Virus record (IMG/VR): IMGVR_UViG_2778261641_000002
Location: 1-7,271 of that record
Direction: 5' to 3' (one strand)
Length of the DNA stretch: 7,271 bases
DNA from: a virus
Lineage: Duplodnaviria > Heunggongvirae > Uroviricota > Caudoviricetes
Shown here: positions 2,940-7,170 of the stretch, piece after piece
How the letters are laid out: the number at the start of each line of letters is the position of its first letter
How positions within the stretch are numbered: the first letter of the stretch is position 1
The notes under the pieces: model-generated
What the model was told of the DNA's origin: nothing
The model's database searches: none
The model's input: only the letters and a program-made list of their open reading frames with translations
Translations under genes and position numbers: made by a program

Positions 2940-3302
2940 CTAAATGGCTAATTGCATGTCAAGGCTTTTAACAGCAACATGCTTAACTTTCTCAACACGT
3001 TTACGCATTTTGAAAGCATTTTGCATCGGCTGGTATAAAACAAATAATGACGCTTTCAGGATGTCGTCAATTTCGTTTCTACAGGTTGCCAGTGAAGGTT
3101 TTCTCCATCCCTCGCCACCACGTCCACACATCTTGCGTGGCTTTGCAGTCGCGTGATAGTAGGATGCAATTGCTCGCTTAGATGAACCATGAGCGTAGTA
3201 GCTGAGGAGGATGCCAAAGGCTTTCTTGTCAATGTACATGACGGAATCGACGACCTGAGAAATCAACATTCCATCATCATCATTACACATTGGCCTTGTC
3301 AT
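2940..3302 (-). CDS. Q-like late antiterminator (phage-21/QuuD-type), probably N-terminally truncated; 120 aa from the ATG at 3302
   Basis: Protein [46 protein letters not shown]... aligns, from memory, with the middle of the 127-aa DLP12 QuuD-type Q protein (…[41 protein letters not shown]…), whose first ~40 residues have no counterpart here. The in-frame upstream region hits a stop 14 codons above the ATG. The position, immediately upstream of the late promoter and lysis cassette, is where Q sits in lambdoid phages. Confidence 0.4.
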
Positions 3303-4477
3303 AACTCTTCCCGATAGAGCATGATGATTGAGTCTGCGTCCTGTTCAATGCTTCCTGAATCACGCAAATCTGCGTTTGTCGGGCGTTTGTTTGGTCGCTT
3401 TTCAACATCGCGCGAAAGCTGACTCAGGGAGATAACCGGTGTTTTCAGGTCTTTCGCCATCGCCTTCAGGCTTCCGGAGATGTGGGCAATTGCGAGGTCG
3501 TTGCGGTCTGCTTTCGGCTTCTCAATCAGGCCAAGATAATCCGCCATGATGAGTGAGAGGTTTGGATTTTCCTGTTTGTGCCGTTCTGCGATTGAGCGTA
3601 TTTCTTCGACCGATAATCGCGAGGCATCGACTACCCATACATCCAAATCTGCAAGCTGACTCATGCCGTTAGCAACGCGCGCCCAGCCTTCGTCATCCAT
3701 CGCTGCAGGATTTCGCAGCACACTAACCGACATCCTCCCGGCGTTGGCAATGCTTCGCTCTGCAATCTGCAATGCGCTCATTTCCATTGAGAAAATCAAT
3801 ACCCCGCGCCGGACGTCAGAACCAGGAATAACGCGGCTTGCAACGCCTTCGGCAATCTTCAGCGCCAGTTCGGTTTTCCCCATACCAGGACGAGCAGCGA
3901 TTATCACCAGGTCTTCCGCGTTCATCCCTCCGGTGATGGCATCAAGTTCTTCAATTCCGGTCTTCAGGGTATCGGACTCTTCTCCGTTCCTCAGACGCCT
4001 GTCAAGCGTGTCAGTGTAGTCAGTAATGATTTCCCCTAACCGTACAGGTTTAACCTCGTCACGGGGCTTTCTGATGGCTGAAAGACGCTTTACAAGCTCA
4101 TCCATCGCCTGACTCGATGCGTCGATGGTTCCGCTCTGAATTGGTTCACGCATTTCATCCATGATTTCCAGCACCAGACGGCGGTGATAGTTATCCGCGA
4201 CCATTCCGGCATATCCCTTCAGGTTTGCGGCACTCGGGCAGTTTTTGCTGGTCATCAGGATTGAGGTGAAATGCTCCTCTCCGCACGCCTCGGCAACCAT
4301 CAGCGCGTCGATTAGGTTTCTGTTTCTCGCCTGCTTGCGGATAACCTCGAAGGCTCTCCGGTAGAGCGGAATTGAAAACGCTTCCGGCTCCAGCGTTGCC
4401 AGAACGTCGCTGGCGGTTGGTGTTAATCCACCAATCAGCAGGCCACCGATAACGCTCGCTTCGATATCCTGTCTCAT
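3299..4477 (-). CDS. DnaB-type replicative helicase (P22 gene 12-like), 392 aa; appears to lack about 45-50 C-terminal residues
   Basis: N-terminus [13 protein letters not shown] resembles E. coli DnaB IEAEQSVLGGLML. Walker [12 protein letters not shown] is present. The C-terminal region [46 protein letters not shown] aligns with Dna[50 protein letters not shown]..., but the ORF stops right after YREEL, whereas DnaB continues for about 49 residues including the GKQRNGP motif. The start ATG overlaps the O stop codon (ATGA). Confidence 0.85.
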
Positions 4478-5421
4478 GCAATCCCCCTGTCTGCAAACTT
4501 CCCTTCCCGTACTCCAGTTAACGAATCTTCCCTCAGCAGGTAATCAAAATCTGCCGTCCAGCCAGTGTCGTTGTCTCCGAAGTAAAACGGCTTGGCCTGA
4601 TGTACAAACGCCCTGACATACGCTCTGAAACCGTCCACGCTTGGCGTTTTCAGTTGCGGGATGATTTTCTTCAGGCGGCGTTTGCGTTTCTCGTTGACCG
4701 CAACAGCGTGTGGCAGTCTGTCACCGACTTCGGTGTTGTAGGCGTTCAGGAAGGATTCGTAGTCGATTCGTTCTGCCTTGCGACGTTCAGGTTTAACCTG
4801 CCCATCGCCGCCCCCATTGGGGGGTAGGGGGGTATTATTTATATTCTTGTTAATACCTTCTTGTTCATGATGTGCGGTTGTTTGTGCGGCTTCATGTGCG
4901 CTTTCATGTGCGGCATGTACGCTGAAAGCCGCGCCATTACTGGCTTCATCATGTGCGGCATCATGTGCGGTTGTTTGTGCGGCTTCATGTGCGGGTGAAT
5001 TGTCCATTTTTTGAGCGTATTCATGGTAATTTGTGATGGTGATCACACGACCTTTTTGCTTCTCTCCATCAATGGAGATCATCCCCTCTTTCACAAAAAC
5101 CTGAAGCATCCGCTCAACCTGATCACGGCTTGCCGGCTTGCCATGCCTGTCGCATAACTGAAGACCTAAATCAGCTGCTGTCACAACCAGTTGACCGGGT
5201 TGCAGATGCCATTCATGACCTTTGAAATTCGCTTTGTATGGCTTTCTGGCGGCATTCAGGAGAAGGTTTTCCCACAGGGTGCGAAGATAAACATCTTTCG
5301 CCCATGACTGTTTCAGAATGCTCCGGTACAACGGAATGTAACCAGTTTTCTGGTTCTCCATCCTGTTGCTCCTGCGCTCGTGTGCGGCGCTGAAATCGTA
5401 GATTTTTGCTGTATTGCTCAT
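4474..5421 (-). CDS. O: Replication initiator, lambda O-like N-terminus, 315 aa
   Basis: N-terminus [10 protein letters not shown] resembles lambda O MTNTAKILNF. The middle of the gene encodes a His/Ala-rich repeat ([41 protein letters not shown]) that coincides with a DNA iteron array, as for ori-lambda inside O. The C-terminal domain (…[29 protein letters not shown]) does not resemble lambda O, consistent with partnering a DnaB-type helicase rather than lambda P. Confidence 0.85.
4819..4860. other. AT-rich tract plus G6-TA-G6 element adjacent to the iterons (putative origin unwinding region)
   Basis: TATTATTTATATTCTTGTTAATA (4833-4855) lies directly downstream of the iterons in the O-gene sense, matching the iterons-then-AT-rich layout of ori-lambda. 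It is flanked by GGGGGGTAGGGGGG (4819-4832) and the near-palindrome CCCCCATTGGGGG (4811-4823). Confidence 0.5.
4866..4994. repeat. Iteron array of the replication origin inside the O gene: eight TGTGCGG cores at exact 12-bp spacing in two clusters of four
   Basis: Plus-strand TGTGCGG (or TGTGCGC) begins at 4871, 4883, 4895, 4907 and at 4952, 4964, 4976, 4988, with one degenerate copy TGTACGC at 4917. A 31-bp perfect direct repeat ATGTGCGGTTGTTTGTGCGGCTTCATGTGCG occurs at 4869-4899 and 4961-4991. Confidence 0.7.
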
Positions 5422-5423
5422 AA

Positions 5424-5696
5424 CTACCTGCCTTGACGAAAGACCTTAAGAACATCGTTAAACTGACTTACGGATATGTCTTCTTTGAGAAGCTTTTTCA
5501 GAAATGCGTTTGGAATTAACGTATATCCCTCCTCTTTTGGTAGAGACTGGAGCAACGCCCTCGCCTCAGCCTTCAGAAGCTCAGTTCTGGCAACTTTCAC
5601 AAAAGAGATTTGAGTTCTTTCATCAATGGAACGAAGGAAGCGCAAACGCTTAGCTTCTTTGTGTGTATCAGGTGGATTAAAGCCTTTGTTTCGCAT
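5424..5696 (-). CDS. Hypothetical protein, 90 aa, between cII and O
   Basis: The ORF-track frame 5424..5864, started at the internal ATG at 5696, gives MRNKGFNPPDTHKEAKRLRFLRSIDERTQISFVKVARTELLKAEARALLQSLPKEEGYTLIPNAFLKKLLKEDISVSQFNDVLKVFRQGR. A strong ribosome-binding site (GAGGTAA) lies 5-10 nt upstream. The gene is tightly packed: 22 nt after the cII stop, and its stop is 2 nt before the O start. I do not recognise the family. Confidence 0.5.
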   Translation of the reverse strand: MRNKGFNPPDTHKEAKRLRFLRSIDERTQISFVKVARTELLKAEARALLQSLPKEEGYTLIPNAFLKKLLKEDISVSQFNDVLKVFRQGR

Positions 5697-5718
5697 ATAA
5701 TTACCTCGTTGGATGTTG

Positions 5719-6018
5719 TTAAAAATCCATCTGGATTTGTTCAGAACGCTCGGTCTTGCACACCGGGCGTTTTTTATTGGTGATTTCATCAAGCGCATAC
5801 TTAAAAGCCCTGCTAATCGGACTGATGTCTGATGCCATTCCGAAAGCACACAAGACCGAAGCAATAAATCTCCAGTCCGTTCTGCTTATCTTCGATTCAT
5901 GACAGCCAATCATCTTTGCCAGACCGCGCTGGGTAAGCGTTGACAGGTTGATGAGTAAATCTGTTTCTGCGCGATCAACGTCGCGCTGTGATAGTTTGCT
6001 GTAACTTGTTTGTTCCAT
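5719..6018 (-). CDS. cII: cII-like transcriptional activator (lysogeny establishment), 99 aa
   Basis: The C-terminal region ...DEITNKKRPVCKTERSEQIQMDF matches lambda cII ...ILTNKKRPAATERSEQIQMEF as I recall it. A helix-turn-helix-like segment LTQRGLAKMIGCHESKISRTDWRF is present. The gene is immediately downstream of cro, as in lambda. Confidence 0.85.
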   Translation of the reverse strand: MEQTSYSKLSQRDVDRAETDLLINLSTLTQRGLAKMIGCHESKISRTDWRFIASVLCAFGMASDISPISRAFKYALDEITNKKRPVCKTERSEQIQMDF

Positions 6019-6156: not shown

Positions 6157-6384
6157 TTATGCAGCCAGAAGGTTCTTTTTGCTTATTTCAAGCATTTCGC
6201 TTGCTTGATATTTGCCACCAGAAATCTCTTCGATTTTTGATGCGTATTTCGTTTTCCCAAAAAACTCAGTCTTAGGGAGGAAGCCGTTTTTGAGCCACTT
6301 ATAGACAGCCCTTTCGCTAACTCCACAAGCCTTCGCAACTTCAGGGATGCCGACACCTTTAATCGGCTCATCAAGATTTTGCAT
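6157..6384 (-). CDS. cro: Cro-like helix-turn-helix repressor, 75 aa from the ATG at 6384
   Basis: Protein MQNLDEPIKGVGIPEVAKACGVSERAVYKWLKNGFLPK... has a clear helix-turn-helix (IPEVAKACGVSERAVYKWLKNG). It is transcribed divergently from cI across a 78-bp operator region. AAGGA lies 7-8 nt upstream of the 6384 ATG; the ORF-track start at 6417 has no ribosome-binding site. Confidence 0.7.
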   Translation of the reverse strand: MQNLDEPIKGVGIPEVAKACGVSERAVYKWLKNGFLPKTEFFGKTKYASKIEEISGGKYQASEMLEISKKNLLAA

Positions 6385-6399
6385 AGGGATATCCTTTTT

Positions 6400-6461
6400 C
6401 GTACTTTCAGTACGCATTATGATTGAACTGAAAGTTTTTGCAAGTGCTTTAGTATCGTACT
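6400..6461. promoter_or_regulatory. Divergent immunity-region control region: three candidate operators plus pR (for cro) and pRM-like (for cI) promoter elements
   Basis: Inverted-repeat sites: CGTACtttcaGTACG (6400-6414), AACTGAAAGTT (6426-6436, which shares ACTTTCAGT in opposite orientation with the first), and AGTAtcgTACT (6451-6461, which shares CGTACT). Minus-strand pR candidate: -35 TTGCAA (6438-6443), 16-bp spacer, -10 CATAAT (6416-6421). Plus-strand TAGTAT (6450-6455) ends 7 nt before the cI ATG, and there is no Shine-Dalgarno sequence. Confidence 0.4.
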
Positions 6462-6462
6462 C

Positions 6463-7170
6463 ATGGTTCAGAATGAAAAAGTGCGCAAAGAATTCGCCCA
6501 GCGGCTAGCGCAAGCCTGTAAAGAAGCTGGTCTTGATGAACATGGTAGGGGAATGGCTATAGCCCGTGCCCTTTCTCTTTCGTCCAAAGGCGTTAGCAAA
6601 TGGTTTAATGCTGAGTCTTTACCGCGTCAGGAAAAAATGAATGCGCTTGCGAAATTTCTAAACGTTGATGTTGTTTGGCTTCAGCACGGCACTTCGTTAA
6701 ATGGAGCGAATGATGAAGATACTCTTTCATTTGTTGGCAAATTAAAAAAAGGGTTAGTGCGCGTGGTTGGTGAGGCAATTCTTGGTGTTGATGGTGCCAT
6801 CGAGATGACCGAAGAGCGCGATGGGTGGCTCAAGATTTATAGCGATGATCCAGATGCCTTTGGTCTTCGTGTGAAAGGAGACAGCATGTGGCCTAGAATA
6901 AAATCAGGAGAATATGTACTCATTGAGCCTAACACCAAAGTATTCCCGGGTGATGAGGTGTTTGTCAGAACCGTTGAAGGACACAACATGATCAAAGTTC
7001 TTGGCTATGACAGAGACGGAGAATACCAGTTTACAAGCATCAACCAGGACCATAGGCCAATAACGTTGCCTTATCATCAAGTAGCAAAGGTGGAGTATGT
7101 GGCTGGTATTCTGAAGCAATCTCGCCATCTGGATGACATCGAGGCAAGGGAGTGGCTGAAAAGTTCGTGA
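6463..7170 (+). CDS. cI: cI-type prophage repressor (N-terminal helix-turn-helix plus C-terminal LexA/S24-like autopeptidase domain), 235 aa
   Basis: The N-terminus (…RALSLSSKGVSKWFNAESLPRQEKMNALAKFLNV…) looks like a helix-turn-helix DNA-binding domain. The C-terminal domain has GDSMWP (catalytic Ser) and MIKVLG with the Lys exactly 37 residues after the Ser, the same spacing as LexA Ser119/Lys156. The gene is divergent from cro. Confidence 0.9.
   Translation: MVQNEKVRKEFAQRLAQACKEAGLDEHGRGMAIARALSLSSKGVSKWFNAESLPRQEKMNALAKFLNVDVVWLQHGTSLNGANDEDTLSFVGKLKKGLVRVVGEAILGVDGAIEMTEERDGWLKIYSDDPDAFGLRVKGDSMWPRIKSGEYVLIEPNTKVFPGDEVFVRTVEGHNMIKVLGYDRDGEYQFTSINQDHRPITLPYHQVAKVEYVAGILKQSRHLDDIEAREWLKSS

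Follow-up and report, generated by a model that had tools for sequence, protein, structure and literature searches.

A conserved small gene between cII and the O-type initiator of lambdoid prophages encodes a candidate replication-module accessory protein whose core resembles the initiator N-terminus

The arrangement of cII, oop, a small orf and O has been set out for lambdoid phages, with orf48 of P22 and gp53 of HK97 as the small orf (Hayes et al. 2012, PMC3349717). In lambda, the oop RNA down-regulates cII (PMC5869508), and the oop promoter, p_o, overlaps the start of O (PMC6022878; PMC3349717). Small genes between oop and O have been noted for decades with no function assigned, and our literature search found no functional study of a small ORF between cII and O, or upstream of O. 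The name 'orf48' also appears in Silas et al. (PMC12373910), where it is the library index of gnarl1 and has nothing to do with the P22 gene.

An earlier note on the DNA studied here had drawn attention to a 90-aa ORF occupying this slot, on the grounds that O directly follows cII in lambda. The lambda sequence bears this out; it is lambda, however, that proves to be the exception, since P22, HK97/mEp213, SI5 and Stx2a_F451 all have a small ORF at this position. The P22 record places orf48 between c1 and gene 18, with the oop promoter annotated over the orf48 start (locus L019, 1912-2058). gp53 sits between oop and the initiator gene in both mEp213 and HK97, and a 47-aa orf48-type gene fills the slot in Salmonella phage SI5 (L015, 2580-2723) and in Stx2a_F451 (L014, 2636-2778), where it is unannotated. 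Klebsiella phage 2b LV-2017 carries a 265-aa protein between cII and O (L017, 1704-2501), annotated as a 'putative transcriptional regulator' and ParB-like in appearance when inspected by eye; the slot therefore accommodates large insertions too. The O N-domain of the Klebsiella phages carrying the ParB-like gene is 80% identical to that of the O-like protein described below. The orf48 family (phrog_1913) precedes dissimilar initiators, either P22 gp18 or an HTH protein with a primase-helicase. The PHROGs label for this family, 'tail protein', looks mistaken, given that the gene belongs to the early replication operon.

The stretch of DNA analysed in full here (7,271 nucleotides; hereafter the window) belongs to a lambdoid or P22-like prophage, of which it is the early-right region seen from the opposite strand (Table 1). 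Downstream of the helicase gene lie Q, holin, lysozyme, Rz/Rz1 and a Rha-family gene. The iteron-like repeats within the O-like gene, which encode a His/Ala-rich repeat in its product, are the probable replication origin. Compared with the prophage of E. coli LZYWN_4, approximately 3.57 kb is absent from the window (L001, 3625-7190). This deletion removed the whole nin region; its junction lies at 3295-3313, where the two alignment blocks overlap by 19 bases, and the helicase, at 392 aa, compares with 455-458 aa elsewhere. The window's prophage looks defective. The helicase gene also varies in the other direction: after the ORF-O pair of Stx2a phage 981509 (L009, 4720-7113) it measures 2394 nt against 1377 nt elsewhere, a difference in length that suggests an insertion or fusion in the helicase of Stx2a phages.

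Table 1 Features of the window, with positions numbered along the 7,271-nucleotide stretch.
Feature	Position	Strand	Remarks
Q remnant	2940-3302	-	5'-truncated, joined to helicase gene
DnaB-type helicase	3299-4477	-	392 aa, shortened by deletion
O-like initiator	4474-5421	-	Phage_rep_O, E 3e-15; phrog_345, E 1.5e-99
Iteron-like repeats, CATGTGCGG at 12-nt spacing	4864-5006		inside O-like gene; at least 6 copies
90-aa ORF, phrog_2519	5424-5696	-	runs from 5696 down to 5424; stop TAG 5424-5426
Core, residues 32-90	5427-5603	-	proposed truncated copy of an O-type initiator (first ~60 residues)
N-terminal 31 residues	5604-5696	-	Enterobacteriaceae 90-aa form only
TATAAT, predicted -10 of leftward p_o-like promoter	5696-5701	+	overlaps ORF start codon; read directly in the sequence
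Ribosome-binding site GAGGTAA of 90-aa ORF	5701-5707	-	GAGGT six bases before ATG
Predicted oop-like antisense RNA	5708-5776	+	overlaps last ~58 nt of cII
cII homologue	5719-6018	-	Pfam Phage_CII, E 6e-34; upstream gene, same rightward operon as ORF
cro-like gene	6157-6417	-	
cI-like repressor	6463-7170	+	

Within this region the ORF lies between oop and O: an oop-like terminator (5747-5775) precedes it, the predicted leftward -10 lies at its start, and the O-like gene follows. The protein gave no match at E ≤ 1 to the HMMs of phrog_1913 (orf48) or phrog_1331 (gp53), and is a third family in the cII-O slot beside those two. Translation of 5424-5696 on the minus strand yields exactly the 90 residues quoted in the earlier note. 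The ATG occupies 5696-5694 with GAGGT six bases upstream, and the O-like ATG follows the TAG by 2 nt, in keeping with the description of a tightly packed gene with a strong ribosome-binding site. The protein had also been called basic and helical, and both properties stand: the 10.5-kDa product has a predicted pI of 10.2 (19 K+R against 11 D+E), and its AlphaFold2 model, built on an alignment of 12 sequences, has helices at 10-28, 32-51, 63-71 and 76-87 with a mean pLDDT of 80.7. Fold searches with this model returned nothing specific. An identical protein, WP_063101521.1, is encoded by the LZYWN_4 prophage.

We next consider whether the ORF is a gene at all. Its conservation might conceivably reflect signals in the DNA or RNA, such as the oop promoter or a replication signal comparable to lambda 'ice', or a gene on the opposite strand; indeed, its first ~15 nt show constraint on the DNA itself, and mechanical plus-strand ORFs exist at 5476-5613, 5504-5653 and 5610-5783. 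Substitutions among relatives, however, pile up at the third positions of the minus-strand frame (for example 16/14/49 and 29/24/56 at codon positions 1/2/3), a pattern that contradicts this explanation. Frame, length and stop are moreover kept in JEP4, Scandinavium, Pseudescherichia and two distant contigs (51-77% protein identity), where the DNA is saturated at synonymous sites. For the 90-aa form, compared across six loci reaching down to 51% protein identity, dN/dS was 0.08-0.19 wherever dS could be estimated; values of 0.09-0.10 among the shorter relatives of 59-62 aa, described below, indicate purifying selection there too. Because third-position changes dominate and dN/dS is low with dS saturated, we conclude that the ORF is a genuine gene with selection acting on its protein sequence, and regard a purely nucleic-acid or opposite-strand origin of its conservation as barely credible.

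The length and C-terminus of the ORF are conserved. Of 5426 complete E. coli genomes, 279 contain a match to its 273 bases, which spans at least 80% of that length in 278 of them, and 11 of 12 sampled E. coli genome rows were full-length, carrying the RefSeq label 'hypothetical protein'. The same DNA occurs in phages CUS-3, JEP4, Kapi1 and Gally and in approximately 50 Stx2a phage records; the gene is missing from the annotation of CUS-3 and of the Stx2a phage records sampled, and annotators should call it. A lack of conservation, seen for example as frame-disrupting variants, had been proposed as grounds for rejecting the ORF. Degraded copies do exist (one frameshifted, P0022, and two fusions, P0024 and P0030), but they are a minority and the frame is kept across relatives.

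The start of the ORF is embedded in a control element resembling that of lambda. The predicted antisense RNA, whose +1 is placed near 5708 by analogy with lambda, matches the 3' half of lambda oop nearly base for base. A terminator scan located a stem (5747-5753/5763-5769) followed by T6 (5770-5775), and five stem pairs are preserved through two-sided changes across ten lambdoid loci; oopRNA is annotated in the phage 21 record. When the whole window was compared with Rfam at E ≤ 1 nothing matched, so oop has no usable model there. A consensus promoter scan did not call the predicted p_o-like promoter, probably owing to a poor -35. CATATAAT or CATAAT is conserved at this position in 10 lambdoid loci. 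The stretch AATTATATGCGAAA, which runs from inside the GAGGTAA into the ORF, shows no variation among the seven aligned family loci even where synonymous sites elsewhere are saturated, and is also common to orf48-type loci. Given this invariance and the overlapping promoter, the first codons of the ORF are doubly constrained. The junction between cII/oop and the ORF is a mosaic boundary.

This setting bears upon one of the three roles that had been suggested from the early-operon position of the ORF, namely an influence on the lysis-lysogeny decision. A modulator acting via cII (for instance by altering how stable or active CII is), or by an interplay with oop, would suit a gene that immediately follows cII on the same transcript and whose start is embedded in the p_o/oop element. 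The gene is found, however, without cII upstream in three relatives (L020, L023 and L024), and the ORF is missing from many phages whose oop and cII 3' ends are near-identical. We therefore consider a cII-directed role very unlikely; of the suggested roles it is replication control that we favour, for the reasons developed below.

The earlier note had been unable to assign the protein to a family. This holds for Pfam and NCBIfam, to no family of which the protein belongs, but not for PHROGs: residues 1-90 of the protein cover positions 1-90 of 90 in the HMM of phrog_2519 (E 1.1e-55), a family listed with no known function. A sequence search of the PDB with the family profile gave nothing at E ≤ 10. 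The family is small. A word-indexed search of 5.8 billion proteins produced 33 matches, the full-length ones all at least 67% identical, while an exhaustive HMM search of 1.84 billion cluster representatives recovered 14 proteins, including relatives of ~90 aa at ~50% identity, and no full-length O or other long protein containing the ORF sequence. A scan of genome contigs added just two further species. Searching with the C-terminal 41 residues uncovered a second branch of 59-62 aa in prophages of Providencia, Proteus and Xenorhabdus. These shorter relatives align to residues 32-90 of the window protein and consist of this part alone, so the conserved unit is residues 32-90, referred to here as the core. 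Within it K42, I61-P62-N63, L83 and F86 are invariant, and F65 and F79 nearly so.

The constant companion of this family is the O-type initiator. An O-like or Phage_rep_O initiator gene lies directly downstream in 16/16 loci inspected (the window included), and the spacing from stop to start is +2, -4 or -8 nt in 9 of 11 loci, a later ATG having been called in the other two. Since the O-like ATG in the window is only 2 nt past the ORF stop, this arrangement implies, as judged from the sequence, that the two genes are translationally coupled. Other neighbours change around the pair. The adjacent helicase is mostly DnaB-type, L020 having a Toprim/AAA_25 primase-helicase instead, and the N-domains of the initiators downstream of ORF relatives diverge to ~15-25% identity, leaving the O-type initiator itself as the invariant neighbour. 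Fusion of the two products by a -1 frameshift was considered and discarded, as in several loci the reading frame of O closes within 0-8 codons upstream of the ATG. The converse dependence does not hold: mEp213, ST104, P22, BTP1 and others have the same O C-domain and a DnaB helicase without the ORF, and Klebsiella phages with the 80%-identical O N-domain lack it as well. The ORF is therefore tied to O-type initiators and is not required by them. The steady adjacency could also stem from common descent of a linked block rather than from joint function.

That replication modules sharing either the O N-domain or the C-domain work without the ORF is also what would be expected of an accessory, moron-like gene for counter-defence or host takeover, lodged in a permissive slot and perhaps using its likeness to O as a decoy. 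The variability of the slot among related phages (empty in lambda, elsewhere orf48, gp53, the ORF or the ParB-like gene, which are unrelated to one another) is typical of accessory genes and fits such a reading, as does a small basic protein of no known fold. Against this, PADLOC-DB offered no credible match; its sole hit (12.6 bits, E 0.0086, to a 653-position methyltransferase model) was taken as noise. Furthermore, accessory genes usually move, whereas this ORF is found only at the start of O-type genes, across two bacterial families and at ~46% protein identity, and its conserved stop-start overlap suggests co-expression with O. On balance an accessory role of this kind is unlikely.

We sought the relationship between the core and the initiator by profile comparison. 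With hhalign, the core aligned to a profile of 35 O N-termini with a probability of 81% (P 1.2e-5, 64 columns). The match strengthened as the O profile deepened: six O N-termini gave no significant result (E 0.1) and 12 gave 55% (P 1.2e-4). The register was the same in all runs, with ORF residues 32-88 on O residues 1-59 and G57 on the invariant glycine of the O 'DGY' turn. A profile match of 81% does not settle the matter, but it is accompanied by further points of likeness. In this register the core would take in the N-terminal helix of O, the G-[YF]-x-x-IPN motif and then two helices, the first of the winged-helix domain. The 59-62 aa relatives begin MSNV..., like O proteins (MSNTA..., MSNLA...). 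A sub-threshold match to Phage_rep_O, at positions ~6-39, is present in 18 of 29 family members with a best E of 5e-5. For the window protein, residues 55-88 align to positions 6-39 of Pfam PF04492 (Phage_rep_O) at 14.8 bits and E 0.043, below the 28.7-bit gathering cut-off of this 95-position domain. The core falls short of membership because it is without the recognition helix and wing, and the protein appears to be related to the first third of the PF04492 domain without being a member.

Comparison of predicted structures is in agreement. The AlphaFold2 model of the O N-domain from the window (pLDDT 80.7) has helices at 10-23, 28-36 and 44-56, followed by a beta-hairpin (strands 62-80), two helices (82-87 and 99-111) and a wing (115-129); the solved structures closest to it in fold are DNA-binding domains of the winged-helix type, among them DnaD-NTD, ORC2 and a plasmid initiator. 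The elements occur in the same order in both models, as helix 32-51, G57, helix 63-71 and helix 76-87 in the ORF protein and as helix 10-23, G27, helix 28-36 and helix 44-56 in O. The ORF model ends at the second helix beyond the G-Y turn and so does not form a complete winged helix. Taken together, we think it probable that the core derives from the start of an O-type initiator, as an old copy cut down to its first ~60 residues.

The N-terminal 31 residues have a different affinity. Residues 9-32 show a weak likeness to three orf48-type proteins (hhalign P 2.7e-4, probability 42%, 24 columns), with an orf48-like pattern of PD-x-HK-x3-R-x-RFL-x-S, and in the Proteus prophage L021 an orf48-like gene of 58 aa and a core gene of 59 aa are separate and adjacent. 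Because of the orf48-like N-terminus and these separate neighbours, the 90-aa form may be a fusion of an orf48-like gene to the core, an origin for which the comparison is suggestive only.

A likeness to the start of O could simply mean that the ORF is a leftover 5' piece of O, from an old duplication or out-of-register recombination, now serving as an inactive translated leader that feeds ribosomes to O and carries p_o. The resemblance of the core to the O N-terminus would be explained in this way, as would the presence of the ORF at the position of lambda O's ribosome-binding site while O's own site is weak; the nucleotide invariance of AATTATATGCGAAA fits a constraint on DNA or on translation initiation. 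A mere leader would not keep its amino acids, however, and here dN/dS is ~0.1-0.2 with dS saturated. The most conserved residues (IPN, F65, F79, L83 and F86) lie far from either end, and the length and C-terminus are conserved besides. A passive leader is accordingly improbable.

We propose instead that the product is an accessory protein of the replication module that acts with O, a reading to which we assign a probability of roughly 45%; any particular molecular detail of its action is far less certain than this. The gene would be transcribed from pR after cII and would take the ribosome-binding site that O uses in lambda. Ribosomes terminating 2 nt before the O ATG, or overlapping it, would then start O, such that O output would depend on translation of the ORF. 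The protein, retaining the part of the O N-terminus that does not read DNA, might associate with O or with a partner of the O N-terminus, and might thereby tune how the initiator complex assembles at the origin or how stable it is there. Action on O or on such a partner is proposed because the core keeps the part of O that precedes its DNA-reading elements.

A more specific version can be framed, in which the protein would be a regulator in the form of an initiator stub: a free copy of the O N-terminus, either pairing with full-length O or competing for a protein that binds the O N-terminus, such as ClpX. The N-terminus of lambda O is a recognition signal for ClpX. O-like proteins keep a lambda-like start (MTNTAKILNF...) in their first ~25 residues even where the rest of the N-domain has been swapped, as seen on comparing window positions 5409-5421 with their equivalents in L004, L005 and L007. 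We hold this version to be rather unlikely. Were it true, the protein would set the timing or stability of origin complexes and would represent an undescribed class of small initiator mimics in Enterobacterales prophages, Stx2a phages among them.

As far as our searches show, three points are new here: the connection with the N-terminus of O, the Morganellaceae branch of short proteins, and the strict association of the family with O-type initiators. Already known were the gene, as a hypothetical protein and a PHROG without a function, and the slot, as a lambdoid feature. An O-like core and a position kept despite changes of cII and helicase offer a concrete, testable handle on the genes between oop and O. 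If an accessory protein acting with O tunes initiator assembly or turnover, lambdoid replication would have an extra layer of regulation, including in Stx2a phages, in which the level of replication affects toxin output. If it has no such role, it is one more conserved hypothetical protein.

Comparison with the described systems places the ORF as follows. Relative to the cII-oop-p_o-O junction of lambda, the 3' half of oop and its terminator are kept, the -10 again lies over the start codon of the first gene (as TATAAT in the window and CATAAT in lambda), and the predicted 5' end of oop likewise abuts that gene's ribosome-binding site; the first gene, however, is the ORF and not O, which puts p_o ~275 bp farther from the origin iterons. 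With orf48 and gp53 the ORF shares its slot, a start codon within the -10 of the leftward oop promoter and a stop that overlaps or abuts the initiator start, but it is about twice as long and its core is like the O N-terminus, which is not obviously so for either of them. Finally, when set against the N-terminal origin-binding domain of lambda O (PF04492), the ORF protein appears to share the G-[YF] turn and the next two helices, whereas it stops before the beta-hairpin, recognition helix and wing and is encoded by a separate, independently selected gene.
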